From: Escherichia phage CLB_P2 | Direction: 5' to 3' (one strand) | Sequence record: OL770107 | DNA length: 64,000 nucleotides | Shown here: in pieces, positions 1,677-47,054 of the stretch | Position numbering within the stretch: position 1 is the first letter of the stretch | How the letters are laid out: each line of letters opens with the position of its first letter | The notes under the pieces: model-generated | The model's database searches: none | Seen by the model: the letters and a program-made list of their open reading frames with translations, nothing else | Told to the model about the DNA's origin: nothing | Translations under genes and position numbers: made by a program

Positions 1677-1766
1677 TGCTTCATATTAAATGTGTTAATA
1701 TACTAACTCAATCTGTTAAAAACTGTTAATAAAATACAACTGCTAAAATCTGCTAAGGTAAATAAT
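1677..1766 (+). promoter_or_regulatory. A/U-rich gene 32 leader, candidate autoregulatory translational operator
   Basis: 90-nt AT-rich untranslated leader with repeated TTAAA/CTGTTAA/CTGCTAA elements directly before the gene 32 ATG; T4 gp32 represses its own mRNA through such a leader. Confidence 0.4.
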
Positions 1767-4395: not shown

Positions 4396-4725
4396 ATGCT
4401 TACTGAATACACTTGCTTTGCTAAAGATGATGCACATCCTGAACTGATTCTTGAAGTTAAGGTTAATACACTTGAACAAAAATTTGATTGGAGCCTTTAC
4501 ATCTATCCTAAAAATAATATTGATGGTCCACAGAAATATACGCTTAACGACAAGTGCATTAGCGGTATCATTGGATACGGGTCTAGCGAAAGCAAATATT
4601 CATTAGAAGATATTCGCCAATCACGTTGTGCCGTCGCTTATTTTGATACTAGTACCATTAAATATCTTTACAAATTGGTTCTTGATATTCGCAAAGATTT
4701 TACCGCAATTAAAAAATGCAGTTAA
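4396..4725 (+). CDS. hypothetical protein (109 aa)
   Basis: ATG at 4396 preceded by GAGGA; the track ORF 4255..4725 begins inside the upstream gene. Confidence 0.5.
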   Translation: MLTEYTCFAKDDAHPELILEVKVNTLEQKFDWSLYIYPKNNIDGPQKYTLNDKCISGIIGYGSSESKYSLEDIRQSRCAVAYFDTSTIKYLYKLVLDIRKDFTAIKKCS

Positions 4726-5506
<781 letters not shown>

Positions 5507-5519
<13 letters not shown>

Positions 5520-6379
5520 TGAAACAATACCAATTTTTAATTAAAGATATCCTGGAAAATGGCTACGAAACCGACGACCGTACCGGCACCGGTACAATTG
5601 CACTGTTCGGTACTAAATTACGTTTTGATTTAACTAAAGGCTTTCCTGCAGTAACAACTAAAAAATTAGCATGGAAAGCCTGTATTGCTGAGCTCCTTTG
5701 GTTCCTTTCGGGTTCAACTAACGTTAATGACCTTCGTTTCCGTACTCACGGTTCACTAATTGGCGGTAAAACTATTTGGGACGAGAACTACGAAAATCAG
5801 GCCAAAGACCTAGGTTATCATAGTGGTGAACTTGGTCCGGTATACGGGAAACAATGGCGAGATTTTGGTGGTGTCGACCAGGTTGTAGAAATCATCAACC
5901 GCATTAAAAAGATGCCTAATGACCGACGTCAAATCGTATCTGCATGGAACCCGGCTGAAATCAACCAGATGGCTCTTCCACCGTGCCATTGTTTTTACCA
6001 GTTCAACGTTCGTAATGGACATCTTGACCTCCAGTGGTACCAACGTTCTGTTGACGTGTTCTTAGGATTGCCATTTAATATTGCCTCTTACGCCGCTCTT
6101 GTGCATATTGTAGCTAAGATGTGTAATCTTATTCCGGGCGATTTAGTGTTCTCAGGCGGCAATACACACATCTATTCTAACCACGTTGAACAATGCCAAG
6201 AAGTTCTTCGTCGTGAGCCTAAAGAGCTTTGTGAACTGGAAATTAATTGGCCTGAAGGATTCTCTGATTGGAGCACGACATTACAGCTTCATTGGGTAAC
6301 AGAGCATATGGTCCATGAAGATTTTAAACTCATTGGTTACGAATCACACCCTACCATTAAGGCTAAAATGGCTGTATGA
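5507..6379 (+). CDS. td: thymidylate synthase (290 aa), uninterrupted
   Basis: Thymidylate synthase motifs (DRTGTGT, LPPCH, FYQF, DLGPVYG); a single continuous ORF. Confidence 0.93.
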
Positions 6380-6440
6380 AAATTCAAATTGCTGGTACCT
6401 TATTTTTGGTTATTATGATTGGGCTGAATTTGGTGCTATA

Positions 6441-6734
6441 ATGAGAGTCTGTAGAGTTGTTAACAAGTATAAAGAAGATTTTGATGTCAATATCCAACGC
6501 GGAACCATGTGGGGTAATCCATTTAAAGATGGGACCCGTGAGGAAAACATCAAGAACTTTAAAGAATACTTTATTGCTAAAATAAAATCGGGTGAAATTA
6601 AAAGAGAACATCTTGAAACCCTTAGAGGTATGCGTATAGCGTGTACCTGTAAACCTAAGGACTGTCATGGGGATGTGATAGCCCTGGTTGTTAACAAACT
6701 TTTCAAAGACACGTTCTCATTAGAAGACCTATAA
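6441..6734 (+). CDS. hypothetical Cys/His-motif protein (DUF4326-like), start uncertain
   Basis: Motif GNPF...ACTCKPKDCHGD resembles a small conserved phage domain; first ATG after the td stop is at 6441 but lacks a clear SD. Confidence 0.45.
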   Translation: MRVCRVVNKYKEDFDVNIQRGTMWGNPFKDGTREENIKNFKEYFIAKIKSGEIKREHLETLRGMRIACTCKPKDCHGDVIALVVNKLFKDTFSLEDL

Positions 6735-6743
6735 ATATCAGTC

Positions 6744-6770
6744 CATGCTTAACAGGTTCTATGATAGAAT
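6744..6770 (+). promoter_or_regulatory. candidate middle (MotA-box) promoter for nrdA
   Basis: TGCTTAA at 6746-6752 resembles the MotA box; TAGAAT -10-like element 12 nt downstream; lies in an inverted repeat AGGTTCTAT / ATAGAACCT. Confidence 0.35.
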
Positions 6771-6800
6771 AATTATAGAACCTAACATATTGAGGAAATT

Positions 6801-9056
6801 ATGCAAGTACAAAAAAGTAGCGGTGTATCCCAAGATTTTGACGCACAAAAAATTATTAAAGTTCTGACTTGGGGCTGTGAAGGAACCCAAATCGACCCCT
6901 ATGAATTATACGAAGAAATCAAATCCCATCTTCGTGATGGTATGACCACCAAAGATATCCAGAATCTGACTGTTAAGGTAGCAGCCAACCTTATCTCGGT
7001 TGAAGAACCCGATTACCAATATGTTGCTGCAAAGCAACTGATGTTTGCACTGCGTAAAGAAGTTTATGGGCAGTTCGAACCGCGTAGTTTTATAGACCAT
7101 ATTTCCTATTGTGTTAACGAAGGTAAATATGACCCTGAATTGCTGTCTCGATATTCTGCAGAAGAAATTACTTTCTTAGAATCTCATATCAAGCATGAAC
7201 GCGATTTCGAATTAACCTATGCTGGTGCAATGCAGCTGAAAGAGAAATATCTGGTTAAAGATAAAACAACCGGTAAAATCTACGAAACCCCTCAGTTCGC
7301 TATTATGTGTATTGGTATGGCCTTACACCAAGACGAGCCAGGTAACCGTTTAGCACATATTATTCGTTTTTATGACGCTGTAAGTACTCGTCAGGTTTCG
7401 TTGCCTACTCCTATTATGGCAGGAGCACGTACTCCAACCCGTCAATTTAGTTCTTGTGTGGTTATTGAAGCAGGCGACTCGCTGAAATCTATTAACAAAA
7501 CCGCTAACTCAATAATTGAATACATTTCTAAACGTGCAGGTATTGGTATCAACGTTGGTATGATTCGTGCTGAAGGTTCTCGTATTGGCATGGGTGAAGT
7601 CAAGCATACCGGTGTTATTCCATTCTGGAAACATTTCCAGACTGCTGTTAAATCATGTTCACAAGGTGGAATCCGTGGCGGCGCTGCTACTGCTTATTAT
7701 CCTATTTGGCATTTGGAAGTTGAAAATCTGCTCGTTCTGAAAAACAACAAAGGTGTCGATGAGAACCGTATTCGACATATGGACTACGGAATCCAGTTGA
7801 ACGACCTTATGATGGAACGTTTCGGTAAAAATGATTACATCACGTTGTTCAGTCCTCATGAAATGGGCGGTGAGCTTTATTATTCTTATTTTGAAGACCA
7901 AGAACGTTTCCGTGAATTGTATGAAGCGGCTGAAAAAGACCCTAGCATTCGCAAGAAACGTATTAAAGCACGCGACCTCTTTGAATTGTTCATGACCGAA
8001 CGTTCAGGCACTGCACGAATTTATCCTCAGTTTGTTGATAACACTAACAACTTCACACCATTTATTCGTGAAAAGGCTCCTATTCGCCAGAGTAACTTGT
8101 GTTGTGAAATTGCTATCCCGACCACCGATGTGAATAGTCCGGACGCTGAAATCGGGTTGTGTACGCTGTCTGCATTCGTGTTGGATAACTTTGATTGGCA
8201 AGACCAAGACAAAATCAACGAACTTGCTGAAGTACAGGTACGTGCACTTGATAACTTGTTAGATTATCAAAGCTATCCTGTTCCTGAAGCTTTGAAGGCT
8301 AAGAAACGTCGTAACCTGGGTGTAGGTGTTACGAACTACGCCGCATGGTTAGCAAGCAACTTTGCTTCTTATGAAGATGCAAACGATTTAACTCACGAAT
8401 TGTTTGAGAGATTACAGTATGGACTTATCCGAGCATCAATCAAGTTGGCCGAAGAAAAAGGGCCTTGCGAGTATTATTCAGACACTAAATGGTCTCGAGG
8501 CGAGCTTCCTATCGACTGGTACAATAAAAAGATTGACCAAATCGCAGCCCCAAACTATGTTTGTGACTGGTCGTCGTTGCGGGAAGACTTGGCTAAACAT
8601 GGCATCCGTAATAGCACATTATCAGCACTTATGCCATGCGAGTCAAGCAGCCAAGTTTCCAACTCTACAAACGGTATCGAACCTCCGCGTGGTCCGGTAA
8701 GTATTAAAGAATCTAAAGAAGGTAACTTCCGTCAGGTAGTTCCTAATGTAGAACATAACCAAGGCCTCTATGATTACGCTTGGAGCCTCGCTAAGAAAGG
8801 TAATAAACCTTATCTTACCCAAGTAGCAATTATGTTGAAATGGGTTTGCCAATCTGCATCAGCGAATACGTATTACGACCCTCAGAACTATGAGAAAGGA
8901 AAAGTTCCTATGTCAGTAATGCTTGATGACCTGTTATATTTCTGGTACTTTGGTGGTAAGAACCTTTATTATCATAATACCCGTGATGGCTCTGGTACTG
9001 ACGATTACGAAATCGAAACTCCTAAAGCCGATGATTGCGCAGCTTGTAAGCTTTAA
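6801..9056 (+). CDS. nrdA: ribonucleotide reductase large subunit (751 aa)
   Basis: Class Ia RNR alpha features (N-terminal ATP-cone region, catalytic CE...NLC and C-terminal Cys pair), length and position. Confidence 0.95.
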   Translation: MQVQKSSGVSQDFDAQKIIKVLTWGCEGTQIDPYELYEEIKSHLRDGMTTKDIQNLTVKVAANLISVEEPDYQYVAAKQLMFALRKEVYGQFEPRSFIDHISYCVNEGKYDPELLSRYSAEEITFLESHIKHERDFELTYAGAMQLKEKYLVKDKTTGKIYETPQFAIMCIGMALHQDEPGNRLAHIIRFYDAVSTRQVSLPTPIMAGARTPTRQFSSCVVIEAGDSLKSINKTANSIIEYISKRAGIGINVGMIRAEGSRIGMGEVKHTGVIPFWKHFQTAVKSCSQGGIRGGAATAYYPIWHLEVENLLVLKNNKGVDENRIRHMDYGIQLNDLMMERFGKNDYITLFSPHEMGGELYYSYFEDQERFRELYEAAEKDPSIRKKRIKARDLFELFMTERSGTARIYPQFVDNTNNFTPFIREKAPIRQSNLCCEIAIPTTDVNSPDAEIGLCTLSAFVLDNFDWQDQDKINELAEVQVRALDNLLDYQSYPVPEALKAKKRRNLGVGVTNYAAWLASNFASYEDANDLTHELFERLQYGLIRASIKLAEEKGPCEYYSDTKWSRGELPIDWYNKKIDQIAAPNYVCDWSSLREDLAKHGIRNSTLSALMPCESSSQVSNSTNGIEPPRGPVSIKESKEGNFRQVVPNVEHNQGLYDYAWSLAKKGNKPYLTQVAIMLKWVCQSASANTYYDPQNYEKGKVPMSVMLDDLLYFWYFGGKNLYYHNTRDGSGTDDYEIETPKADDCAACKL

Positions 9057-9109
9057 TAAAATCTGATTATAATTGACTCATGGATGAGTCACTAACAAAT
9101 GAGAATAAC

Positions 9110-10249
9110 ATGTCTACAGTTTTTAATACTACCCCGGTTGATGTTTTAGTCGAACCGATGTTCTTTGGTTCAGGATTGGGTATTGCTCGTTACGATATCC
9201 AACGTCATAAAGTATTCGAAGAGCTTTGTGAAAAGCAGTTGAGTTTCTTCTGGCGTCCAGAGGAAGTTAACTTGATGATGGATGCTGCCCAGTTTAATAA
9301 GCTTCCTCAATTCCAACAAAATATTTTTACCAATAACCTGAAGTATCAATCACTTCTGGATAGTATCCAGGGACGTGCTCCTTCTGCTGCGCTCCAAGCA
9401 TTGATTTCAGACCCTAGCCTTGATACATGGGTGGCTACATGGACCTTTAGTGAAACCATTCACTCTCGTTCGTATACCCATATCATGCGTAACCTCTATA
9501 CAGACCCATCTAAGGTATTTGACGAAATTCTATTAGATGAAGCTATCATGAAACGTGCTGAATCTATTGGTCGTTATTATGATGATGTTATTGAGAAAAC
9601 TCGTAAATACCAAAATGCTTTAGAAGAATACCATGAGTTCAGTGAAGGTGTTAAAACCGCTAAATACGAACTAATGCGTTCTCTTTACCTCTGCCTGCAT
9701 GTAATAAACGCATTGGAAGCTATTCGTTTTTATGTATCTTTCGCATGTACCTTTAACTTCCATAAGAATATGGAAATCATGGAAGGTAATGCTAAGATTA
9801 TGAAGTTCATTGCACGTGATGAACAGCTTCACCTTAAAGGCACCCAGTACATTATCCGTCAACTCCAGCTTGGTACAGATGGTGATGAATGGGTTAAAAT
9901 TGCTCAAGAGTGTGAACAAGAAGCAGTTGATATTTTCATGGAAGTTAACCGACAAGAAAAAGAGTGGGCCGCTCACCTGTTCAAAGATGGTACTTGCCCT
10001 GGATTAAATACTCAGAACATGGGTGCTTTTGTCGATTACCTGACAGTTTCTCGTATGAAGCAATGTGGCTTACCATGTCCTATTACTGATGCTCCTACTC
10101 GCCATCCTTATCCTTGGATTCGTGAATACCTGAACTCTGATGCTGTACAGGCTGCTCCTCAGGAAGTGGAAATCAGTTCTTACCTTGTAGCACAAATTGA
10201 TAATGATGTCGATGAAAAAGTAATGGCATCATACAAGAAATATTTTTAA
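9110..10249 (+). CDS. nrdB: ribonucleotide reductase small subunit (about 379 aa), uninterrupted
   Basis: MSTVFN...EPMFFG...RYD aligns residue-for-residue with the E. coli NrdB N-terminus; start taken at that ATG (9110). An in-frame upstream ATG at 9080 lies inside a hairpin. Confidence 0.92.
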   Translation: MSTVFNTTPVDVLVEPMFFGSGLGIARYDIQRHKVFEELCEKQLSFFWRPEEVNLMMDAAQFNKLPQFQQNIFTNNLKYQSLLDSIQGRAPSAALQALISDPSLDTWVATWTFSETIHSRSYTHIMRNLYTDPSKVFDEILLDEAIMKRAESIGRYYDDVIEKTRKYQNALEEYHEFSEGVKTAKYELMRSLYLCLHVINALEAIRFYVSFACTFNFHKNMEIMEGNAKIMKFIARDEQLHLKGTQYIIRQLQLGTDGDEWVKIAQECEQEAVDIFMEVNRQEKEWAAHLFKDGTCPGLNTQNMGAFVDYLTVSRMKQCGLPCPITDAPTRHPYPWIREYLNSDAVQAAPQEVEISSYLVAQIDNDVDEKVMASYKKYF

Positions 10250-10254
10250 GGAAT

Positions 10255-10276
10255 GGGGCTTCGGCCCCTTATTGCT
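10255..10276 (+). terminator. hairpin/terminator after nrdB
   Basis: GGGGC-TTCG-GCCCC followed by TTATTGCT. Confidence 0.5.
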
Positions 10277-10690
10277 ATGAAAGAAATCGCAGATGAATTT
10301 AGCTTTATCAAGTACGTTACACTGGAGCTCCAAACAGATGCTACTATAGCCCCTATCACGGTTCCAAATAAACAAAATGTCATATATGCTATAGCGGTTG
10401 ATGATATACTAGTCTACATCGGGAAGACTAAAAATCTTCGTAAGCGCATCAACTACTACCGAACCGCCATTAATCGTAAGGACCAAACGTCGGATTCGAC
10501 CAAGTCCATTCTGATTCATGAAGCATTAATGGCTGGTAAAAAGGTAGAGTTCTATGCTAGACAGTGCTTTAATCTGTCGATGACTAACGAACTTGGAACT
10601 ATGTCAGTTGAGACCATGTCTCTTGAAGAGCCAATGTTCATAAAGAAATTTAATCCACCTTGGAATACCCAACATAGGATAAAGCAATGA
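10277..10690 (+). CDS. denA: endonuclease II, GIY-YIG family (137 aa)
   Basis: GIY-YIG-like motif (IYAIAVDD...VYIGKTKNLRKRINYY); about 137 aa from the ATG at 10277, close to T4 EndoII; follows nrdB as in T4. Confidence 0.75.
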   Translation: MKEIADEFSFIKYVTLELQTDATIAPITVPNKQNVIYAIAVDDILVYIGKTKNLRKRINYYRTAINRKDQTSDSTKSILIHEALMAGKKVEFYARQCFNLSMTNELGTMSVETMSLEEPMFIKKFNPPWNTQHRIKQ

Positions 10691-11835
10691 TTGAATTATA
10701 TGATAACTTGATGACTTTGGTTAAAAACTCGACTAAATCTAAGTTCTTCTTTAAAGACTTCCAGAGTGCGCTAGGAGTCAACTATCGCATCTTTAGTTAT
10801 AACTATGCATCGTACAGTGATTGGTTGGAAGACGGCGCACTAGAGTGCCGAGGCATTATGTTTGAAATGGACGAGAATGGTCCTGTACGTATCGCTGCTC
10901 GTCCTATGCAAAAGTTCTTTAATCTCGATGAAAACCCACTGACTATTGGTTTGGATTTATCACAAGAAAATATTGATTTGGTTATGGCCAAGGAAGATGG
11001 TTCCTTGATTTCTACCTTCATGGATAGACAATATCTTTCTGTTAAATCTAAAGGCTCTATCCATTCATCGATGGTACATGATTCTTTACGTTTCCTTCGT
11101 CTCCCTGAAAACGAGGCCTTCGCTGCTCGTTTAGAAGAAATTACTAAAGCAGGCTATACATGTAACCTCGAGTATGTTTCGCCTACTAACCGTATTGTGC
11201 TGGCATACCAAGAAACAAACCTTATCTTACTGAACGTTCGTAATAACGAAACAGGTGAGTATATCCCTTACGCTGAACTGTTTAAAGATGGCGCTCTGCG
11301 TAAGCATTTGGTTAAAAGCTATGAACTCGCTGAAGGTGATTTTGTTGACAATATCCGTAAACAAGAGGGTATTGAAGGCTTTATCTTTGTACTTAAAGAT
11401 GGCACGTTCTTTAAACTCAAAACCGCTTGGTATAGCGCACTGCATCATACCAAAGATTCCATTAACAATAACGAACGTTTGTTTGAAGTTGTAGTGGCTG
11501 GTGGAACCGATGACCTCCGAGGTTTGTTCAGTACTGATTCATTTGCTATTGAGAAAATCAATGCATTTGAACGTATTCATTTAGACTACTTAGAACAGTC
11601 CTTGGCTTTGTTAGAAGCAGCATATTCTCAGCTCAAGGGTCGTGACCGTAAAGACTACGCTGTTACCGGTCAGTTAATCCTCAAAGACTTCCCAGGGCTG
11701 TTCTCTATTCTTATGCAGGCGTACGTAGGCGGTATTAATTATGATACGGTCGTAGACCAGATTAACTCTGTGTTCTTGAAAAATCATAAGGCCCAAATCC
11801 CTGAAAAATATTTGAAAGAAATTGTGATAGAGTAG
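10687..11835 (+). CDS. rnlA: RNA ligase 1 (382 aa)
   Basis: Strong match to remembered T4 Rnl1 (YRIFSYNYASYSDW, ECRGIMFEMD, lysine-containing ligase motif). Confidence 0.92.
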   Translation: MIELYDNLMTLVKNSTKSKFFFKDFQSALGVNYRIFSYNYASYSDWLEDGALECRGIMFEMDENGPVRIAARPMQKFFNLDENPLTIGLDLSQENIDLVMAKEDGSLISTFMDRQYLSVKSKGSIHSSMVHDSLRFLRLPENEAFAARLEEITKAGYTCNLEYVSPTNRIVLAYQETNLILLNVRNNETGEYIPYAELFKDGALRKHLVKSYELAEGDFVDNIRKQEGIEGFIFVLKDGTFFKLKTAWYSALHHTKDSINNNERLFEVVVAGGTDDLRGLFSTDSFAIEKINAFERIHLDYLEQSLALLEAAYSQLKGRDRKDYAVTGQLILKDFPGLFSILMQAYVGGINYDTVVDQINSVFLKNHKAQIPEKYLKEIVIE

Positions 11836-23748: not shown

Positions 23749-25809
23749 ATGACCGAACAATTGAATGAGGTGTTTGAGTCCGAAGGCACCCTGCCTACTG
23801 TAAACTTAAACCCAAAACTTAAAGTACCCCAGATTTGGAAGATTGGCGATGCTGAATCCCAATTGGTTGCTCGTATGGTATCTTATGCCTCTGAAGGCGA
23901 TGCTATTAAACAGGTTAAATTAGGTGATAAATACGCCCACGTTATCCTTATGAGCCTTTCAGCTAAAGGTTCTCCAGCCGAACTTAAAGGCGGCCTAGGC
24001 CCTACTCCTATTGATGCTATCAATACCATTTTCGACGTAGTATTCGAACAAGTTAAAAAGCTTCGTATGGATGCAGTGATGTTCCGTTTTCCAACCAAGA
24101 AAATGAAAGGACAAGGCCCTATTGTCCAACGGATTATCCAACGTTTGGTAGCACAGAAAACCGGTGGACGTTTTAAAGTAGTTCCTGCTATGTACCAATT
24201 TACCGGTAAACATACTTATATCCTAGTAGTTCGTAAACAAGCTGATATCGAAGATATCAAAGGTATGCCAGGAATTAATTCCGAATTATACACTAAGGTA
24301 GATTCTGATGTCGGTGAAGTTTATATTTCTAAAAAAGAAGGCGTACAGGTTACTAAAGAAACTGCTATTGCCGGCAGTATTGCCAAAGTTGAAGAACGTC
24401 GCACTGATAAAATGGTTATAACCAAGACTAAGATTTCTCGTCGCGCTATTGCAGCAAGCCAGTCTTTAGAATCCTATCGTAATGAAAGTGAACTGTTTAA
24501 GAAATATGAAGCCACTGCCGCTGATTTTAATAAACCGGCAACAGCTCCATTAATCCCTGAGGCCCAGGAAATGGTCACCAATAACAATTCTCCTGCGGCT
24601 AAAAATAAAGTTGCTAATATAGTAGCTGAAGGCACTGCTGAAGAGTTGCATTACGATTATAAAATGTTTCCTCTTCACGGTATAGGTGAAATCCAAGAGA
24701 AAATTAAAGAGAAAATCCTTACAGCCATCAAAAACGAACCTTTGACATCTGTTAAAGCTCTAGAAAAATATGCCTCTGTTATTAATACAGTTTTTGAAGA
24801 ATATAAAGGCGAATGGCTGGCTATACATAACAAAACTCGTAAAGGTCAACCTGACGACGTCTGGAATGAATTAACCGAGTCCAAGTGGAAAGCCGCTAAG
24901 ACCAAGTTCATTAAAAAACGTGTTTATAGTTTTGCTGGTGTAGGTGGCGGTATTATGGTTGATATTACTTTAGGTCATAGTGCAGATAAATACACCCCTT
25001 CTCAAAAACGTGGTATTCGTGAATATTGTGGCTCCGGATATGGCGATATCAATAACCTTCTTTTAGGACGATATAATCCTCAGAACTATGAAGTTATGAG
25101 CGAAAAAGATATCGAATCTGCAGTTAATAATTTGGATTCTGCTTTTGAAAACGGTGATAGATTACCTGAAGGCATCACAGTTTATCGTGCACAGAGTATG
25201 ACGTGGGCCATATATAATGCTTTAGTCAAAAATAAAGTATTCTATTTTAGAAACTTTGTATCAACTTCACTGACCCCTATTATTTTCGGTCGTTTTGGTG
25301 TTACTCATGCCGGTGTAGGTCTTTTAGAGCCTGAAGTTAGAGCCGAACTTACTGTAGATAAAAATGATGAAGGTTATACTAAGGTCCAAGGTTCCGGCGA
25401 CAAATTGGTTAAAGTTGGTTGGGCCATTGACGGTGCTTCTAAAGTTAACGTGGTATTCCCAGGACAACTTGGTATTGCTACTGAAGCTGAAATCATTCTT
25501 CCGCGCGGACTAATGGTAAAAATTAATAAGATAACAGATGCATCTAATAATGATGGTATAATATCCAACAATACAAAACTCATTCAAGCTGAAGTTATGA
25601 CATCAGATGAGCTTCAAGAATCTGTAGTGTATGATGGTGACGTACTAATGGAAACCGGTGAATTGGTTGTATACCAAGATGACTTCGATACTTCCGAAAG
25701 CCCTGTATCTTTTGATTCATTTGTTAAATCTACACGGTTTGACGTACTGCCTCTTTTGGCTTCATGCATAGACCTCTATGACATACCAGAAAAATTCATC
25801 CAAGGGTAA
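23749..25809 (+). CDS. alt: Alt-like ADP-ribosyltransferase, copy 1 (686 aa)
   Basis: R-S-E ADP-ribosyltransferase signature (YRAQ, FVSTSL, EAEIILPRG); size near T4 Alt; position between ligase and gene 54. Confidence 0.85.
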   Translation: MTEQLNEVFESEGTLPTVNLNPKLKVPQIWKIGDAESQLVARMVSYASEGDAIKQVKLGDKYAHVILMSLSAKGSPAELKGGLGPTPIDAINTIFDVVFEQVKKLRMDAVMFRFPTKKMKGQGPIVQRIIQRLVAQKTGGRFKVVPAMYQFTGKHTYILVVRKQADIEDIKGMPGINSELYTKVDSDVGEVYISKKEGVQVTKETAIAGSIAKVEERRTDKMVITKTKISRRAIAASQSLESYRNESELFKKYEATAADFNKPATAPLIPEAQEMVTNNNSPAAKNKVANIVAEGTAEELHYDYKMFPLHGIGEIQEKIKEKILTAIKNEPLTSVKALEKYASVINTVFEEYKGEWLAIHNKTRKGQPDDVWNELTESKWKAAKTKFIKKRVYSFAGVGGGIMVDITLGHSADKYTPSQKRGIREYCGSGYGDINNLLLGRYNPQNYEVMSEKDIESAVNNLDSAFENGDRLPEGITVYRAQSMTWAIYNALVKNKVFYFRNFVSTSLTPIIFGRFGVTHAGVGLLEPEVRAELTVDKNDEGYTKVQGSGDKLVKVGWAIDGASKVNVVFPGQLGIATEAEIILPRGLMVKINKITDASNNDGIISNNTKLIQAEVMTSDELQESVVYDGDVLMETGELVVYQDDFDTSESPVSFDSFVKSTRFDVLPLLASCIDLYDIPEKFIQG

Positions 25810-25812
25810 ATA

Positions 25813-27936
25813 ATGGAAAATTTAAACGAAGTTTTTGATAGTGATTCCGCTAAAAACTATCCAGTAACAAATCTTAAGCCAGGCTCAGGTATCCCACAGA
25901 TTTTCTCTATCCAAGCACCAGGTAATGATAACCTGGTTGCTCGTATGGTATCTTATGCGTCTCAAGGAGACGCTATTAAAATGGTTAAGCCTGGCGACAA
26001 ATATGTCCACGTTATTCTAATGAGTTTGTCAAGCAAGGGTGCTCCGGCTGAACTCAAAGGTGGGCTTGGTTCCGACCCGCTTGGTGCATTGAATACTATT
26101 TTCGATACGATATATGAACAAGTAAACAAACTTAAAATGGATGCAGTTTTGTTCCGTTTCCCTACCAAGAAAATGAAAGGTAAGGGTCCTACTGTTCAGC
26201 GGGTATTAGCTCGTTTGGTGATGGCACGTACCGGTGGTAAGTTTAAAGTTGTTGATAACATGTTCCAATTCAGTGGAAAACATACCTATGTTCTTTTAGT
26301 ACGTCGCGGCACTAATATCGAAGATATCAAGGGTATGCCTGAAATTGATGCTGACCTTTATACCAAGGTTGAGTCTAAAGTTGGTGAAGTTTATGTTTCT
26401 AAGAAAACTGGCCGGGCCGTAAGTAAGGTCGAAGCCGTGGCGGCATCTATTGCACAGGTTGAAGAGAAACGTACCGATAAGGCTGTTATCTCTCGTACTA
26501 AGATTTCTCGTCGTATGGCTGCAGCAGCACAGTATTCTACTGCCGAACCTGAAACTTTATCCCCTAAAGAATTGCAGGTTTATAATGAGTTTGAAGCTTC
26601 TGTACCTGTTCATTCGGCTGAAGGTCCTGAGAACGAAGGTATTGAACAAATTAGCCAGAACTTTAAAAAAGGTGCTATTACTAAAATGCGTCAGGCCTCT
26701 CAGTTTAAATCTAAGAGTGAGGACCTTGCCAACTTTAGATACACCATTGCTCTCACACACGCTTTAATGACTGATAGTAAATTTAAACTAAATTATGCTA
26801 ATAGAGATAAACAAGGGTTTGAAATTTACTCTAATAATATGGCATTTTTTAATACGGAAGTCGATAGACTTTTAAGCGGCCTTTCTCAAATCAATACTAC
26901 CAATAGTCTGGATATTATTAAGAGAATTGTTAATAACCTGAGTGCCCGTTTTCAGGGGTCTCCTTCAGAGAAAGCATCCCGAATTGCTTTCGCTATGGAA
27001 GCCGTTTATAAACTGATTAACGATTCTATTAGCGATGCATATGCTTATTCAGGCGAGCTCATTAAACCTAAGGGCTTGACCAAAGACGAAAGTAATGCCA
27101 TTATTGAATATTGTGCGGCTGAATATGCTCCTATGAACTTATTCCTTTTAGGTAAACCTGAATCCGAAAACAATACAACAGCTATTAAATTGATTAAGGA
27201 TTTAGACTCAGCATTTACCAAGGGTATTAAACTTCCTAAAGGTACTATTTTGTATCGTGGTCAGGATTTACCATACAAAATTCTGCGCCATAATATTGAT
27301 AACAAAACCTTTTACTTTAAGAACTTTGTATCCGCTTCATTAAAGCCTAATATCTTTGGTGAATTTGGTAAAAATTATATGGCCCTCGACAACCAAGCAG
27401 TTTTTGTTGGTGATGAAGGTTCTTTATCCTCCGCCGATGAGTTGTTTAAATTGGCCAGTGGTAGTTCATCTGACGTAGGTGAAGTTGATGATGAAGAGGT
27501 AGAATGGGAAGAAGACGAGTTTGGTAATCCAATTGCACCTGAAGGCCCTGCAGACAGGATTGCTGAAATTGGTATGGTTATTCGAGGTGCTGAAGCAGTT
27601 AAAGTTATCGCTCCTGGTGACCTTACAGAATATGCCGAAGAAGCGGAAATTATCCTTCCGCGCGGATTATTGTTGAAGGTTGATAAAGTAGCAGCTTTTG
27701 CTATGAATGATAGGGTATCTCACAAATACCTTATGGAAGCTACAGTGACATCTCCTTCAGAACTCAGTGAGTCCGTTTACGATGGTGACCATCTGATGGA
27801 AACCGGCGAAGTTAAATTGATGAATGGGTTTAAAGAATTCCTAGTTTCAGAATCTGTTTCAGAAAGTAACGAGGCTATGGAAATCCTTGCTGCATCTTTG
27901 GACATCTCTTCTTTACCAAATAAATTCAAAATGTAG
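25813..27936 (+). CDS. Alt-like ADP-ribosyltransferase, copy 2 (707 aa), tandem paralog
   Basis: Shares the first ~220 aa with copy 1 (LVARMVSYAS.GDAIK, HVILMSLS.KG.PAELKGGLG, FRFPTKKMKG.GP) and the motifs YRGQ, FVSASL, EAEIILPRG; central region divergent with an acidic insert. Confidence 0.85.
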   Translation: MENLNEVFDSDSAKNYPVTNLKPGSGIPQIFSIQAPGNDNLVARMVSYASQGDAIKMVKPGDKYVHVILMSLSSKGAPAELKGGLGSDPLGALNTIFDTIYEQVNKLKMDAVLFRFPTKKMKGKGPTVQRVLARLVMARTGGKFKVVDNMFQFSGKHTYVLLVRRGTNIEDIKGMPEIDADLYTKVESKVGEVYVSKKTGRAVSKVEAVAASIAQVEEKRTDKAVISRTKISRRMAAAAQYSTAEPETLSPKELQVYNEFEASVPVHSAEGPENEGIEQISQNFKKGAITKMRQASQFKSKSEDLANFRYTIALTHALMTDSKFKLNYANRDKQGFEIYSNNMAFFNTEVDRLLSGLSQINTTNSLDIIKRIVNNLSARFQGSPSEKASRIAFAMEAVYKLINDSISDAYAYSGELIKPKGLTKDESNAIIEYCAAEYAPMNLFLLGKPESENNTTAIKLIKDLDSAFTKGIKLPKGTILYRGQDLPYKILRHNIDNKTFYFKNFVSASLKPNIFGEFGKNYMALDNQAVFVGDEGSLSSADELFKLASGSSSDVGEVDDEEVEWEEDEFGNPIAPEGPADRIAEIGMVIRGAEAVKVIAPGDLTEYAEEAEIILPRGLLLKVDKVAAFAMNDRVSHKYLMEATVTSPSELSESVYDGDHLMETGEVKLMNGFKEFLVSESVSESNEAMEILAASLDISSLPNKFKM

Positions 27937-38133: not shown

Positions 38134-38147
38134 GTCTAATTCTCAGT

Positions 38148-38170
38148 TATAAATATAATTATATTTATAC
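38148..38170. promoter_or_regulatory. divergent late promoters (inh on plus, uvsW on minus)
   Basis: TATAAATA at 38148-38155 on the plus strand and its complement TATTTATA at 38163-38170, each about 30 nt from its ATG. Confidence 0.5.
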
Positions 38171-38188
38171 ACCAACAAGAGACTAATT

Positions 38189-38869: not shown

Positions 38870-40282
38870 ATGGCTTTTACTGTAAGTATAGCCGGCGCTG
38901 CGTCTATTAAAATAGGCGAAAGCGCCAACTACACTGCTACCGCAACAGGTGCAGCTGTAGAAGGAACCGTTACATATGTATGGACCATTGACGGTGCTTC
39001 TAATCCGGAGGCAACCAATGTTTTGAGATATACCGGTGCGGCTCCAGCTGGTAAGAAAGTTTTAAAAGTAGTAGCAACTTCTACTCCGGCCGAAGGCGAA
39101 CCTGAGGTAGCTGAAAAAACTTTTGAAGTTACCGTAGCTAATAAGACCATGACTATTTCTTTGGCCTTAGACCCTACTTCCGTTTCTAAAGAAATTGGCC
39201 AGTCCCAAGTTGTTACTGCTAACGTGACGGGTGCTCCTGCTGGTGCTACAATTGCTTATGTTTGGAAACGTAATACAACTGTAATTTCAGGACAAACTGG
39301 TAAAACTATTACTGTAACCGAAGCAGCAGAAGCAAATTACACGTTGAACTGTGAAGTTACTGTTACCGCCCCTGAATATGACCCGGGTACCGCTACTAAA
39401 GGTGTTGCGGTAACTTTTGTTAAGAAAACTATATCAGGTGCTTCCGTTACTTTAACACCAGCCTCAATTAGTACAGAGAAAGGCTCATCTGCACAGTTTA
39501 AAGCGGATGTAGTTGGCGCTCCTTCCGGCGTAAATGCAACTTATTCTTGGAAGAAAAATGGTTCTATTATTCCAGGCGAAAGCAGTAATATTCTTGCCGT
39601 CGATACATCTACAATAGGTTCTTACTCTATTGAAGTTTCGGTACTCCTAAAAGGTACGGATTATAATGATTTAACCGTTACCAAAACAGGAAGTGTAACA
39701 ATTACTAAAAAGACTATGGCAGGTGTTTCTGTTAATTTAACGCCTGCTTCTATTACTGTCTCTGAAGGAATCCCGGCTTCTTTTAAAACCACGGTAGTCG
39801 GTGCGCCTAGTGGTGCTACTTTTGCTTATTCTTGGAAGAAAGATGGTTCACCTGTTGTGGGTGCTACGGATACATTAGTAATTGACACAAGCGCTGAAGG
39901 TTCACAGGTTATTGAAGTTTCTGTTGTGGTTTCGGCTACCGACTATAATTCTGTGACCGTCACAAAATCCGGTAATGTAACAATTACGGCTAAAGTCGCT
40001 CCTGAACCAGAGGGCGAACTACCTTACGTTCATCCGCTACCAGTTCGTAATTCAGCTTATATTTGGTGTGGTTGGTGGGTTATGGACGAAATTCAGAAAA
40101 TGACCCTTGAAGGCAAAGACTGGAAAACTGACGAACCTGATAGTGAATATTATCTCCATCGTTATACCCTTCAAAAAATGGTAGCCGATTATCCTGAGGT
40201 TGATGTACAGGAATCTCGTAATGGTAGAATTATTCACAGAACCGCTTTGGATGCTGGAATTATTTACGATTACGTTTATTAA
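38870..40282 (+). CDS. hoc: Hoc outer capsid decoration protein with four Ig-like domains (470 aa)
   Basis: C-terminal capsid-binding region (AKVAPEPEGELPYVHPLP...AYIWCGWWVMDEIQKMT.EGKDWKTD...EVDVQESRNG) matches T4 Hoc; four Ig-like repeats each with the Y.W pattern. Confidence 0.92.
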   Translation: MAFTVSIAGAASIKIGESANYTATATGAAVEGTVTYVWTIDGASNPEATNVLRYTGAAPAGKKVLKVVATSTPAEGEPEVAEKTFEVTVANKTMTISLALDPTSVSKEIGQSQVVTANVTGAPAGATIAYVWKRNTTVISGQTGKTITVTEAAEANYTLNCEVTVTAPEYDPGTATKGVAVTFVKKTISGASVTLTPASISTEKGSSAQFKADVVGAPSGVNATYSWKKNGSIIPGESSNILAVDTSTIGSYSIEVSVLLKGTDYNDLTVTKTGSVTITKKTMAGVSVNLTPASITVSEGIPASFKTTVVGAPSGATFAYSWKKDGSPVVGATDTLVIDTSAEGSQVIEVSVVVSATDYNSVTVTKSGNVTITAKVAPEPEGELPYVHPLPVRNSAYIWCGWWVMDEIQKMTLEGKDWKTDEPDSEYYLHRYTLQKMVADYPEVDVQESRNGRIIHRTALDAGIIYDYVY

Positions 40283-40310: not shown

Positions 40311-40367
40311 TATGATAATGTTTCGGGAGATTAAGTTATTGACGAATAATTTTTAATAGGTGGATAT

Positions 40368-40547
40368 ATGAAATTTAACAAAGATATAGGGTTGTTGGTT
40401 TTCTTTATAGTGCTGTTTTTGTTTTCGTTAATTTCATTAACTAGTGGGTTGTTTGCTTCTATATTGGCTCTTTTCACATGCATTAGTTCCTTTTTTGGGA
40501 TAATAGCTACTATAGATAAAATTTTACATACCAAAAAGGGCCCGTAG
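40368..40547 (+). CDS. small predicted membrane protein (about 59 aa)
   Basis: SD AGGTGG 6 nt before the ATG; hydrophobic product (MKFNKDIGLLVFFIVLFLFSLISLTSGLFASILALFTCISSFFGIIATI...); followed by a terminator. Too short for the ORF track. Confidence 0.45.
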   Translation: MKFNKDIGLLVFFIVLFLFSLISLTSGLFASILALFTCISSFFGIIATIDKILHTKKGP

Positions 40548-40560
40548 GCCCTTTATTATT
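40531..40560. terminator. bidirectional terminator
   Basis: GGGCC-CGTA-GGCCC hairpin flanked by an A-run upstream and TTTATTATTTTT downstream; serves the plus small ORF and the minus Hoc-like gene. Confidence 0.6.
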
Positions 40561-41422
40561 TTTCAGGAGGGACGTAAACTAAGTCTTTCCTTTCTAAGAT
40601 GTAGCCATTTCTCGACTCTTGTATCTCTACTTCAGGATACTTAGACAAAAGGTCGGCTACTTTTTGTAACTCACATTTATACTTGTATGGGCTGTTGTTT
40701 ATATCCAAAGTCCAATCTTCTCCCAATCTAACGGCTTCTCTTATTTCGTCCCATACCCACCAACCTATCCACATATACGATTCATTTCTTCCACCGCCAT
40801 ATGGTAAATAAGCATTAAGGTCGTTATCATATATGAAAGGGCACTGCAATACATCATCCCTAGGTTTTATTTCAACTAAAAGTTCTTCAGAAGCAGGGAT
40901 ATATGCTCCTTCGCAGGTCGCTATAGATTTTAATGTATAATCTCCAAATTTATCAGGGTCGTCTATTAATATATCAATATCTTCGTCTTTAGATAATTCT
41001 ACTCCATCTCTATACCATCTACAAATTCTTTCGGCATAAGTGGGTTCCACTCTACACGACGGGCGAAGTGAAACTGTTTCTCCTATATTGGCATATATTA
41101 ATTCCCTAGAGTTTATATCTAGGACTATTCTTCTTGGAAGGGTACCTATTTCAAGTTCTATTTCGTTACTCTTTGTTATTTCACCACTTTTCTTATTTGT
41201 TATGGTCGCATAAAATGTTCCTGCCGCCGGGAATCCTACTTCCCATAAATTTAATTCAAAAGGGTCTTCGGTAGGAAGTTGTGGAATATGGACATCGTTT
41301 TTATACCAATTAATTTCTACATCATCTAGAGTAGAACCGGGTGGTAATACAAACCCGGTATAAAAGGTTACTGTCCTGCCAACCAATTCATATCTAGGAC
41401 CATTTATTTTAAGTACAATCAT
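40556..41422 (-). CDS. second Hoc-like protein: two Ig-like domains plus a Hoc-type capsid-binding C-terminus (288 aa)
   Basis: C-terminus (NESYMWIGWWVWDEIREAVRLGEDWTLD...KYPEVEIQESRNGYILE) parallels the Hoc C-terminal domain; N-terminal region has Ig-like W.Y and Y.C patterns; SD AGGAGG couples it to the upstream collagen-like gene. Confidence 0.75.
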   Translation of the reverse strand: MIVLKINGPRYELVGRTVTFYTGFVLPPGSTLDDVEINWYKNDVHIPQLPTEDPFELNLWEVGFPAAGTFYATITNKKSGEITKSNEIELEIGTLPRRIVLDINSRELIYANIGETVSLRPSCRVEPTYAERICRWYRDGVELSKDEDIDILIDDPDKFGDYTLKSIATCEGAYIPASEELLVEIKPRDDVLQCPFIYDNDLNAYLPYGGGRNESYMWIGWWVWDEIREAVRLGEDWTLDINNSPYKYKCELQKVADLLSKYPEVEIQESRNGYILERKDLVYVPPEK

Positions 41423-41431
41423 TTAACCTCC

Positions 41432-42937
41432 TTAAAACGTGCTCATATTGGTATGGTCTTCGACAGAAAATAAAACTTCAACAGGGATATCTGTAGTCGT
41501 ATTAAGAGGGCCGCCTACAATAAACACAGATACAGTGTAGTATTTTCTAGTATCACGGTCAAATATTTCGTAACGGTTAAATTGTCTTGCACTAGAATAA
41601 GCCAAATCGTCGAATAATTCAGGAGATGATGACCACAACACATTACTCCAGTTGGCACATTCTATTCCGTTTTCATAGTTGGTAAATCTTTTAATATCAA
41701 GCCTATTAGTAAGACCTGCATTAGTAGCCCTTATATGGATGCCTACAGATGAGTACATGCGAACATGAAGAACCATATTAAGGTCCCACAAACGTATTTC
41801 CTTCCACTCTGAAGTGTTCAGAGGCTTATCAAATCTTAAAGAGCCTTTCCAATATCTAGGTGGATAGAATGGGAAAAGTTTATCATATAAAGATTTTAAT
41901 TGAGACTGGGTTAAAGAATCGACATCAAATACTGCATCTTTGCCTGGCGCACCTGCAGGACCTATAGGACCTTGAATACCTTGAGGACCTTGATCGCCTT
42001 TTTCACCTTTAGGTCCTGGATTACCTTGTGGACCCTGCGGCCCTTGAGCACCGGGCGCGCCATCTTCTCCTGGATATCCAGGTCTTCCTTCTTGTACAAA
42101 CAAATGCCAATAATCAACCCATAGGTCTCCACGGCCTGGATAACTATCATTATTTGCTATATTGTCCTGAATACAAATCCAAGAAGACCCTTCGCACTGG
42201 ACTAAATCATTTACATAATAAGGTGTGCCAGGGTCCCAGTTTCCGGCCCAGATAAACCCATTACCATCTTGGCCTGGCGCGCCTTGTGGACCTTGAGGGC
42301 CGGTTGGGCCTGTTGGTCCTTGAGGACCTGGTGCACCGATATTAGCCAATAGCGCCCAAACTCCTTCGCTAGGAGGTATTGTTCCTGTATTAGAACTGAT
42401 GCAAAAATAAGAAGCTCCCTGGTATCCAACTGCATCGTCTTTAGAGTATTGGGTAGATTCATCCCAGGCTCCCTTCCACACCAAACCTGCCGGGCCTATA
42501 GGACCTTGTGGTCCTTGCGGTCCTACTTCTCCTTGGGCCCCTTGTAAACCCTGAGGGCCTTCTTTTCCTGGTGAACCCGGGTCTCCTTTAGGACCTTCTG
42601 GACCTGCTGGTCCTGGTTCGCCCTTTTCTCCTTTAGGACCCGGGTTACCTTGAATACCTTGCGGCCCTGGGTCTCCTTTAGGGCCTTGTGGACCTTCAGT
42701 ACCAGGTGTTAGCATCTCATTAGTTATACCTAAATGGGCCAACGCGCCTTCCCTAGAAGCTTGTTTTATAAATTCAAGTCCATAACTTTGAGAAGAATCC
42801 AACATAGTAGGGTCTAAGGTGCTTTCACTAGTGAGTATGTCTGCAAATTCCAATGATTTATCCTGCGGAACTTCTACTAATGATACGCCTCTAAAGTGAC
42901 CTCTACCGTCATGCCCGTATAATGGATTGTCTGACAT
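41432..42937 (-). CDS. collagen-like triple-helix repeat protein with two carbohydrate-binding-like (CBM5/12-type) modules (501 aa)
   Basis: Three Gly-X-Y runs of about 24, 8 and 17 triplets, separated by W.G.WD...Y...D.V...G.S(Y/W).CI modules; SD CAGGAG before the ATG; first gene of a two-gene minus-strand operon. Confidence 0.8.
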
Positions 42938-44341: not shown

Positions 44342-44376
44342 ACAATAAAGGGACCTTACGGTCCCTTTTATTTTTC
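44341..44376. terminator. bidirectional terminator (rnlB on plus, gene-24 paralog on minus)
   Basis: GGGACC-TTAC-GGTCCC hairpin flanked by AACAATAAA and TTTTATTTTTC. Confidence 0.65.
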
Positions 44377-45648
44377 TAGTGGTGGAAGTTTAACACCGAG
44401 ATAAGAACTCAACTGACTTTGATTAGCCATTTTGTCCATATCCGAACCATCAATAATGCGAGCTTCTTTATCGTCCTTAGCGACGGTATAAGGGTTTGCA
44501 GTCAATGCATAACGAGCAAGCAATGCTACTGTAGGTTGTAAGCTTTCCGGGTCAACAATAACCTTAAATTCACCTACTGAAGTATCACCTTCTTCATCAA
44601 CCACATCCAAACCTTCCGTATAAGGCGCATAATATAAAGATGCGACCGTCTGTCCTTCACCCATCTGAGCATTTACACCAACAATAACATAATCACATGG
44701 ACTATTCATATCGGCATAAAGAGGTAGACCATTCTTTAATACACCATAAGCCAATTCATCTTGGTCTTCCTTTTTCTCAACCCAACCGGAAGCGGCGAGA
44801 ATAGCAGCACAACGAGAACTAGCTACTGCATAAGTCCCAGCGAAAGAAGTTTGACGTTGGACGGCAGAGTTCATCTCACACATGTAATAATATAATGTAC
44901 GAGCACGGTCCTGGGCATTATCATAACGTGGGTTAGTAAGGTCCAATACGCCCTTTTCAGAAACACCTTGGACTTTAAAACGAGAACTCACCGTAATTAA
45001 TGACTGTAATACGTCCTTATTAATTTCTTCTGCCATTTGAATGCCTAGCAGATTTTCAATGAAATTAGGAGCATTAAATCCGTTTGATTCTAGGTCTTGG
45101 GCCAATTCGACTGTCAACGAAGTTTTCAGTTTACGTGATTTAACTTCAGATTGCCATTTGTCAATACGGAAGCCTGCTTCAGCAATTTCAGGATGGCCTT
45201 GTTCGAATTTAGAAGTAATAGCAGCATCTGATACCATACGAATATGTCCGGCCGCCACTGCTTCAGAAATAACTTCACCGAGGTCGGTTTCCGTGGTTCC
45301 GGCGAAAGGAGATGCTTCTAGAACTTTAAACACTACACTTTCAAACTGGAACATATCGCCGGCTGCATAAGCTGTAGACGAATCGGTAAATTCAGGAATA
45401 TTTTCACGTTCCGACATACCAATCTGACCTGCAAATGTGGCGCCACCAAGATAAGTCATTTTGTCGTCAGGATTAAGTACACGAACCCCGTACAGAGCGG
45501 CCACAGGTTGGCTTGTTTTTTGTTCAGCAACTAGGGCTTTAAAGATTCGTTTATTAGTTGCTTGGGTGTATGAAAGAAGAGCAGGACGGCCAACCGAGTT
45601 GGCAGCCGTCAATGTGGATTCTTTAATTAGGTCTATAATCTTAGACAT
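44368..45648 (-). CDS. gp24-like capsid vertex protein paralog (426 aa)
   Basis: Collinear similarity to the adjacent gp24 along the whole length (about half the residues shared at both termini, e.g. SLQPTVALLARYALTANPYTVAKDDKEARIIDG). Confidence 0.85.
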   Translation of the reverse strand: MSKIIDLIKESTLTAANSVGRPALLSYTQATNKRIFKALVAEQKTSQPVAALYGVRVLNPDDKMTYLGGATFAGQIGMSERENIPEFTDSSTAYAAGDMFQFESVVFKVLEASPFAGTTETDLGEVISEAVAAGHIRMVSDAAITSKFEQGHPEIAEAGFRIDKWQSEVKSRKLKTSLTVELAQDLESNGFNAPNFIENLLGIQMAEEINKDVLQSLITVSSRFKVQGVSEKGVLDLTNPRYDNAQDRARTLYYYMCEMNSAVQRQTSFAGTYAVASSRCAAILAASGWVEKKEDQDELAYGVLKNGLPLYADMNSPCDYVIVGVNAQMGEGQTVASLYYAPYTEGLDVVDEEGDTSVGEFKVIVDPESLQPTVALLARYALTANPYTVAKDDKEARIIDGSDMDKMANQSQLSSYLGVKLPPLEK

Positions 45649-46931: not shown

Positions 46932-46959
46932 TGCGCTTTCCTTATTGAGGGTATATGTT

Positions 46960-46967
46960 TATTTATA
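46960..46967 (-). promoter_or_regulatory. late promoter TATAAATA for gene 24
   Basis: Plus-strand TATTTATA about 30 nt upstream of the gene 24 ATG on the minus strand. Confidence 0.5.
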
Positions 46968-47007
46968 AAAGTTGTTTACAGCAAGGTTCCCACGTGTTAC
47001 TATAGTA

Positions 47008-47038
47008 CAGAAACAAGAATGGGAGACCGAAGTCTCCC
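47008..47038 (-). terminator. terminator after gene 23
   Basis: GGGAGAC-CGAA-GTCTCCC hairpin followed on the minus strand by ATTCTTGTTTCT. Confidence 0.6.
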
Positions 47039-47054
47039 ATAATAAGGTTAGGTC

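Follow-up and report, generated by a model that had tools for sequence, protein, structure and literature searches.

The 64-kb window of the Escherichia phage CLB_P2 genome analysed here contains intact, intronless td and nrdB genes and lacks all six homing-endonuclease genes found in the syntenic stretch of T4, and it is predicted to be an empty-site recipient for such elements; we put the probability of this reading at about 0.9. The window extends from rnh to gene 12 and is an exact match to record OZ035781.1 (Dhakavirus CLBP2), whose whole genome comprises 171,787 bp. Its frd-td-nrdA.1-nrdA-nrdB-denA genes form a nucleotide metabolism cluster of a JS98-like (Dhakavirus) T4-type phage. For a claim of absence it is sensitivity, not chance, that matters, and sensitivity was controlled, with the T4 introns serving as the positive control for the intron scan. 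The features discussed below are collected in Table 1.

Table 1. Genes, spacers and candidate homing sites in the CLBP2 window
Feature	Position	Strand	Basis
Gene 59-gene 32 spacer, empty (segG in T4)	1677..1766	.	ORF map, Pfam, T4 annotation, tblastn
frd (dihydrofolate reductase)	4735..5316	+	Pfam DHFR_1; same annotation in dhaeg
68-aa ORF, 207 bp	5313..5519	+	Full-length match to phrog_9550 (unknown function)
td (thymidylate synthase, 286 aa), uninterrupted (likely start)	5519..6379	+	Pfam, 1TIS alignment, start context
I-TevI homing-site equivalent, -27..+12	6041..6079	+	Alignment with spliced T4 td
nrdA.1 homologue (DUF4326)	6441..6734	+	Pfam DUF4326, E 1e-20; 64% identity with T4 NrdA.1
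nrdA, class Ia ribonucleotide reductase (RNR) large subunit	6801..9056	+	Pfam ATP-cone, Ribonuc_red_lgN, Ribonuc_red_lgC, contiguous matches
nrdA-nrdB spacer, empty	9057..9109	.	ORF map; T4 and fDHCT2 annotation; no MobE/NrdB.1 tblastn match
nrdB (small subunit of class Ia RNR, 379 aa), uninterrupted (likely start)	9110..10249	+	Pfam Ribonuc_red_sm; E. coli R2 alignment
nrdB codon 42, AAG (Lys)	9233..9235	+	Sequence
nrdB exon junction around intron site, -31..+22	9716..9768	+	T4 exon alignment
denA (endonuclease II)	10253..10690	+	Pfam GIY-YIG, T4 DenA identity, PDB 2WSH
uvsW-inh spacer, empty (segE in T4)	38134..38188	.	ORF map, Pfam, T4 annotation, tblastn
Gene 24-gene 23 spacer, empty (segD in T4)	46932..47054	.	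ORF map, T4 annotation, tblastn, Pfam

Intact td and nrdB genes

The program-made ORF for td runs from a TTG at 5507 to 6379. The first-pass annotation gave td a length of 873 nt, which is right for this ORF but probably not for the gene: the upstream TTG inflates the ORF, and the true start is likely the ATG at 5519, giving 861 nt. This ATG overlaps the TAA of a 68-aa ORF just upstream, and the resulting 286 aa is the length common to the thymidylate synthase (TS) of the window, T4 TS and the annotated TS of dhaeg. The Pfam Thymidylat_synt match covers the td product (1-266/266, E 1e-97), and residues 1-286 are colinear with residues 1-286 of T4 TS (PDB 1TIS; E 4e-161). As in ThyA-type enzymes, the catalytic Cys is found in a PPCH motif, the translation reading ALPPCHCFYQF at this point.

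The nrdB ORF was likewise given by the program as 9080-10249, and the start at 9110 is the likely one, with the sequence MSTVFN... the same in T4 and dhaeg. The product aligns colinearly with E. coli R2 over residues 3-374 (E 2.5e-128) and shows no gap at the intron site. The motifs LLDSIQG, SETIHSRSYTHI, NALEAIRF and ARDE.LH are conserved in comparison to E. coli R2, identifying the product as a class Ia beta subunit; the di-iron ligands and radical Tyr of R2 lie in these motifs and are conserved in the nrdB product of the window. Judged from their sequences, both td and nrdB encode full-length enzymes that apparently function. Between them, nrdA has neither intein nor intron, its Pfam domains running contiguously.

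In the T4 annotation td and nrdB are split CDSs containing I-TevI and I-TevIII, respectively, and SegG, mobE, segD and segE lie in the syntenic stretch, in agreement with what the first-pass annotation says of T4. Alignment with the spliced T4 genes, proposed earlier as a check, placed the T4 td intron site between positions 6067 and 6068 of the window and the nrdB site between 9746 and 9747; the sequence is contiguous at both, with no inserted sequence, intron-like or other. The uninterrupted state of both genes is thus borne out by colinearity with the T4 genes, 1TIS and E. coli R2. Consistent with this, blastn alignments of the window to the T4 genes break exactly at the T4 intron positions.

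Searches for group I introns

The Rfam group I model (RF00028), run in E-value mode, had no match at E <= 1 in positions 4700-10700 and none at E <= 0.1 across all 64 kb, while in the same mode it detected the T4 td intron at 40.3 bits and the T4 nrdB intron at 35.7 bits. Scans at the Rfam gathering threshold also gave no match in the window, but this negative is uninformative because the known introns of T4 and Bp7 were missed at that setting. Neither blastn nor Rfam revealed an intron remnant in the window.

Searches for homing-endonuclease genes

The T4 stretch syntenic to the window carries six endonuclease genes, encoding SegG, I-TevI, MobE, I-TevIII, SegE and SegD. With these six proteins as queries, tblastn gave no window match with an E-value below 0.09. 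Pfam searches of nearly all window ORFs showed no HNH, HNH_3, LAGLIDADG, NUMOD or AP2 domain; seven large structural genes were assessed instead by length match to their T4 counterparts, and their products match these in length, with no extra length indicative of an intein or insertion. A PHROGs search of the window ORFs also produced no homing endonuclease. No intergenic gap in the window is longer than about 320 bp, and the slot between nrdA and nrdB, which is filled by mobE and nrdB.1 in T4 and by a dam gene in fDHCT2, is empty in the window. The earlier claim that no homing-endonuclease ORF is present therefore holds for Pfam, PHROGs, tblastn and Seg/Mob profiles, the reach of which is described endonuclease families only.

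The only GIY-YIG protein found in the window with Pfam is EndoII, as the first-pass annotation had it. The Pfam match of the denA product is weak (E 6e-4; 20.4 bits, with the cut-off at 22.6), but the protein is a homologue of T4 DenA with 71.5% identity over 144 aa, matches Endonuclease II in PDB (2WSH, E 3e-65) and is assigned to PHROG 1111, endonuclease. It was rejected as a homing endonuclease, being an EndoII homologue, which degrades host DNA.

Across the whole CLBP2 genome, tblastn with 15 T4 endonucleases and the Bp7 I-TevIII detected one locus at E <= 0.1, outside the window. A GIY-YIG profile built from nine T4 proteins found only this same locus among the six-frame ORFs of CLBP2, and a Mob/I-TevIII profile had no match among the six-frame ORFs of the whole genome. 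The locus is a seg-like gene at 155139-155816 of the record (profile hit at 155103-155813), between genes 5.4 and 6, and within the phage collection it shows 100% identity with VR26 only. The description of this DNA as endonuclease-poor is therefore apt even for the genome, with one seg-like gene in all 171,787 bp as compared to 15 such endonuclease genes in T4.

The empty sites as predicted homing targets

Since the unoccupied sites keep the target sequences of T-even endonucleases, the genome is expected to act as a recipient. If a CLBP2-type genome and an endonuclease-bearing relative were to infect the same cell, the donor endonuclease would cut or nick the empty allele, the break would be repaired by copying from the donor, and the intron or endonuclease gene would be copied into the recipient with a short flanking tract. 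We infer from sequence that the CLBP2 genome itself would be subject to such cleavage and homing.

The proposal that nrdB could be a naive target is supported by three observations. From -31 to +22 around the intron site, 51/53 positions are as in the T4 exon junction, including the region at -14/-16, where I-TevIII cleaves (PMC1865063). Codon 42, the position of MobE-dependent nicks in T2 nrdB, is AAG, the allele reported for phages without mobE (PMC2790892). Finally, there is a natural precedent in Bp7 (see below), which has acquired an nrdB intron.

For td the same proposal is plausible. Over the I-TevI region, 29/39 positions are identical to T4 and the CAACG cleavage motif is retained. 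The ten differences are all synonymous, and five fall within 21 bp around the insertion site, which leaves room for a different reading: td may have drifted at synonymous positions until binding or cutting by I-TevI was lost. Such resistance would account for the lack of a td intron in close relatives; among the 30 closest relatives listed, none has a td insertion, and one (Bp7) has an nrdB intron. With CAACG still present at the cleavage position, however, resistance of td is a possibility that we regard as rather doubtful. According to reports by Bryk (1993) and Edgell (2004), I-TevI can accept many substitutions in its target and cuts where codons for essential TS residues lie.

Comparison with other T4-like phages

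In the td-nrdB region the genes of the window and their order are the same in T4, with which it shares a colinear TS of equal length and a similar EndoII. What T4 has in addition are the td and nrdB introns, the latter holding a decayed I-TevIII, together with mobE, nrdB.1, nrdA.2, segG, segE and segD. T2, the classical recipient of homing crosses, has empty insertion sites in both td and nrdB and an AAG codon 42 in nrdB, as in the window; T2 is a Tequatrovirus, however, and much closer to T4 in sequence, and its role as a recipient has been shown experimentally, whereas that of the window is a prediction.

A close match to the window is seen in JS98 and JS10, with 95-96% nucleotide identity over positions 5507-10249 and uninterrupted td and nrdB; their genes are arranged as in the window, and both the 68-aa ORF and nrdA.1 are present. 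CLBP2 differs from them in having the extra seg-like gene outside the window. The intron-free state of the window is not new, having already been published for JS98 and JS10, for which homing-endonuclease genes are given as "None" as compared to 15 for T4 (Petrov et al. 2010, Table 5, PMC2993671). The td-nrdB stretch of the window has matches in 969 records of the phage collection, but the T4 td intron in only 260 and the T4 nrdB intron in only 129. The intronless, endonuclease-free state is common among T4-like phages, and T4 is the outlier.

Bp7 (Dhakavirus bp7) belongs to the same genus, is 94% identical to the window across the td-nrdB region and has an uninterrupted td. Its nrdB, in contrast, contains a 1088-nt group I intron with a full-length I-TevIII, 99% identical to the copy in RB3. 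The Bp7 nrdB exon is T4-type (60/60) only over the 60 alignment columns that surround the insertion site; Bp7 has acquired an RB3-type intron together with a short T-even-like co-conversion tract. Because Bp7 carries this intron, the earlier term "intron-free lineage" applies to the window but fails for the genus as a whole.

The empty sites could also be those of a former rather than a naive host, if the lineage once had a td or nrdB intron, or both, that was later deleted precisely. Cycles of gain, decay and loss have been described for homing endonucleases (PMC2988022), and the I-TevIII of T4 itself is decayed. The exons beside both sites, however, are Dhakavirus-type and match those of the intronless dhaeg and fDHCT2; the window sites lack a T-even-like co-conversion tract such as that in Bp7, identity of td with a Tequatrovirus drops to 60-78% beside the insertion site, and the remnant searches described above were negative. 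Secondary loss is thus very unlikely.

A small ORF between frd and td

The 68-aa ORF occupies precisely the junction at which frd stops and td starts. It is present in the window and absent from T4, Bp7 and fDHCT2. At 96-98% nucleotide identity it is found in 136 other phage records, including at least one Tequatrovirus (fPS-65), in the record of which identity with the window is 60-78% deeper into td. Where present it has the identical stop/start junction, and it is missing in other Dhakaviruses such as Bp7. Its product has no Pfam or PDB match, contains one His and one Cys, and shows no GIY-YIG, HNH, LAGLIDADG or PD-(D/E)XK motif; as a recognisable homing endonuclease it was rejected.

That one of the small ORFs of unknown function, chiefly this one, encodes an endonuclease that escapes recognition, or is a cassette that mobilises itself, as might be read from its presence or absence among near relatives at one exact junction and its near-identity in 136 records while td of fPS-65 diverges, is highly improbable given the lack of a nuclease motif, of a Pfam or PDB match and of a known function for its PHROG, and given that homologous recombination via frd and td, plus selection, would account for the distribution. 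There is a slim chance that the ORF, instead of being a passive passenger, is a small cassette that moves from one phage genus to another. Its spread could then reflect its own activity or a strong selective advantage, for example in anti-defence, and the window would contain a mobile element after all.

Significance

That introns and homing endonucleases are scattered unevenly among T4-like phages and missing from JS98-type genomes is textbook and review-level knowledge. Beyond annotation, the importance of the present finding is slight. The comparison with Bp7 nevertheless provides a clean natural case of an RB3-type intron that has moved into the nrdB gene of a Dhakavirus along with a short co-conversion tract, and CLBP2 and its relatives are possible recipient genomes for cross-genus homing experiments.

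Source and gene order

The window matches Dhakavirus CLBP2 (OZ035781.1) exactly, as its reverse complement, and spans the origin of that record; this phage is JS98-like and belongs to the Tevenvirinae. Annotation from phage dhaeg, which is 98% identical, together with Pfam scans, gave the gene order rnh, dsbA, 33, 59, 32, frd.x, frd, a 68-aa ORF, td, nrdA.1, nrdA, nrdB, denA, and rnlA, continuing with cd, 31, 30, alt, the baseplate hub, uvsY, uvsW, hoc, 24, 23, 20-13, wac, and 12, among others. The syntenic part of T4 lies at ~90-150 kb. While T4 has a single gp24 and one alt plus fragments, the window carries tandem paralogues of both. Of two Hoc-like genes on opposite strands, the first has immunoglobulin-domain matches in Pfam, and the second has no Pfam match and is named Hoc only by the dhaeg annotation. 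A 501-aa protein flanked by the second Hoc-like gene and a DUF2774 gene, labeled hypothetical in dhaeg, contains collagen triple-helix repeats and CBM_5_12 modules, and its PHROG matches are tail-fibre proteins.

Positions of features in the window
Feature	Window position	Strand	Description
68-aa ORF	5313-5519	+	exactly between frd stop and td start; phrog_9550, unknown function
td, mechanical ORF	5507-6379		873 nt; start TTG
td, likely start	5519		ATG, overlapping TAA of upstream ORF
td insertion site	6067/6068		within codons FLG/LPF
Equivalent of fDHCT2 dam insertion	9057-9109		nrdA-nrdB spacer
nrdB, ORF begins	9080
nrdB, likely start	9110
nrdB insertion site	9746/9747		FAC/TF
Alt ADP-ribosyltransferase, first	23749-25809	+	full length
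Alt ADP-ribosyltransferase, second	25813-27936	+	full length
Hoc-like, first	38870-40282	+	470 aa
ORF between Hoc-like genes	40331-40534		67 aa; no family match
Hoc-like, second	40556-41422	-	288 aa
Collagen-repeat protein	41432-42937	-	501 aa
gp24-like vertex protein	44368-45648	-	Pfam Gp23 family
gp24-like vertex protein	45648-46931	-	Pfam Gp23 family

Intron insertion sites in td and nrdB

The first-pass annotation had described td and nrdB as uninterrupted, and alignment with T4 bears this out. Its length of 873 nt for td is correct for the mechanical ORF, but the real start is likely the downstream ATG, which gives a protein of 286 aa, the same length as T4 TS and the dhaeg annotation; residues 1-286 align with 1-286 of T4 TS (PDB 1TIS). 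Residues 3-374 of the nrdB protein align gaplessly with E. coli R2, with the iron-ligand and radical-tyrosine motifs conserved. In blastn comparisons with the T4 genes, the alignment was interrupted exactly at the T4 introns, and reconstruction of the T4 exon junctions located both insertion sites, neither of which holds an insertion. A small patch of 16 mostly silent substitutions relative to dhaeg is clustered at ~9600-9700 in nrdB.

At the Rfam gathering threshold, scans of the window and of the complete CLBP2 genome yielded three tRNAs only and no intron; this result was given no weight because the same setting also missed the T4 td, T4 nrdB, and Bp7 nrdB introns included as positive controls. 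In E-value mode the two T4 introns reach 40.3 bits (td) and 35.7 bits (nrdB), below the RF00028 gathering score of 50, so these well-known phage introns escape default Rfam scans; results that depend on this threshold should be read with caution. With E-value mode used instead, there was no match in window 4700-10700 or in the whole 64 kb, and neither the window nor the complete CLBP2 genome had a blastn match to the introns of T4 or Bp7. Neither nrdD nor nrdG was detectable in the CLBP2 genome, so the third T4 intron site, in nrdD, does not exist there; nrdH and gene 49 are just ~600 bp apart (record ~119.0-120.4 kb, outside the window). CLBP2 and T4 are colinear across gene 43.

Homing endonucleases

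As had been stated, T4 carries seg and mob genes in the syntenic stretch; with I-TevI and I-TevIII there are six endonuclease genes in all: SegG (59/32), I-TevI, MobE (nrdA/nrdB), I-TevIII, SegE (inh/uvsW), and SegD (23/24). The matching window spacers measure 90 bp (59/32), ~50 bp (nrdA/nrdB), 55 bp (inh/uvsW), and 123 bp (23/24). Pfam was run on nearly all window ORFs, with seven large structural proteins judged by their lengths, which agree with those of the T4 counterparts; it found no HNH, NUMOD, AP2, or LAGLIDADG domain and a single weak GIY-YIG match (E 6e-4), in denA, whose product shares 71.5% identity with T4 EndoII and also matches PDB 2WSH. With tblastn, none of the six syntenic T4 endonucleases had a window match better than E 0.09. 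Across the whole CLBP2 genome, searches with all 15 T4 endonucleases and Bp7 I-TevIII (tblastn, phmmer), and with Seg and Mob profile HMMs over six-frame ORFs, matched one locus only, outside the window. These results, with PHROGs assignments of the small ORFs, uphold the proposals that the window lacks homing-endonuclease ORFs and that EndoII is its only GIY-YIG protein.

The full 171,787-bp genome contains one seg-like GIY-YIG gene (record OZ035781.1 155139-155816, 225 aa), placed between genes 5.4 and 6. T4 has segC near the equivalent position; among T4 proteins, its product most resembles SegA (E 3e-32). Within the phage collection the gene occurs in CLBP2 and VR26 only, at 100% identity. 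With this one gene, compared to 15 in T4, and with the intron searches empty, CLBP2 is endonuclease-poor and without detectable introns. The suggestion of an intron-free, endonuclease-poor lineage thus holds for CLBP2, but freedom from introns does not extend to its genus-mate Bp7, which has an nrdB intron.

td and nrdB as candidate recipients for homing

In this region Dhakavirus Bp7 and the window share 94% identity, but Bp7 nrdB contains a 1088-nt group I intron of the RB3 type, which encodes full-length I-TevIII (5772-6859 in the compared Bp7 stretch). This intron and its I-TevIII are 99% identical to those of RB3 and other Tequatrovirus copies. In the DNA alignment, T4-type exon sequence in Bp7 (60/60) is confined to 60 columns around the insertion site, beyond which the exon is Dhakavirus-type. 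This pattern is characteristic of homing with a short tract of co-conversion, and it suggests homing between genera. In the Bp7 record, the reading frame of nrdB exon 1 is broken, with the annotation nrdB / nrdB'. Insertions seem to recur in the nrdA-nrdB spacer: it is occupied by a dam methylase gene of 804 bp in fDHCT2 (5083-5886 in the compared stretch) and by mobE and nrdB.1 in T4.

Window nrdB is identical to the T4 exon junction at 51 of 53 positions from -31 to +22. Its codon 42, at the MobE-dependent nick sites, is AAG, the allele reported for phages without mobE (PMC2790892). In td, 29 of 39 positions from -27 to +12 are identical, every change is silent, and CAACG, the motif found where cleavage occurs, is retained; I-TevI recognizes ~38 bp and cleaves at -23/-25 (PMC2988022). 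It is possible that this td allele is resistant to I-TevI. Site conservation and the Bp7 precedent make nrdB a well-supported candidate recipient, in agreement with the earlier view of the window as a possible naive target; td is a plausible candidate.

In the phage collection, 969 records match the td-nrdB stretch, whereas the T4 td intron is matched by only 260 and the nrdB intron by 129, so the empty site is the majority state. Secondary loss of introns from this lineage is unlikely, because neither site is flanked by a T-even-type tract and no intron remnant was found by blastn or Rfam. JS98, JS10, RB69, CC31, and others have no homing-endonuclease genes, compared to 15 in T4 (Petrov et al., 2010; PMC2993671, Table 5), and the same authors stressed how unevenly these genes are spread even between close relatives. 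The absence described here is correct, but ordinary and previously described.

The ORF between frd and td

A mobile element hidden among the small ORFs is unlikely, although the 68-aa ORF is variably present among relatives and 96-98% identical in nucleotide sequence across 136 phage records. Ten small or uncharacterised ORFs fall in PHROGs families that are either of unknown function or unrelated, and no seg- or mob-like ORF was seen among the small window genes. As a hidden endonuclease the 68-aa ORF was rejected, having no Pfam or PDB match and a sole PHROG of unknown function. Its single-sequence AlphaFold2 model has three helices at low confidence (pLDDT 56.5). Both junctions are overlapping stop/start sequences (ATGA and TAATG). 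The ORF is absent from Bp7, fDHCT2, and T4, and distant homologues (~42% aa) occur in phAPEC8-like phages. The 136 records include Tequatrovirus fPS-65, whose identity to the window is 84-90% over 5550-5700 and then 60-78% farther into td, which looks like a recent exchange between genera. This ORF is the one feature here that deserves separate attention.
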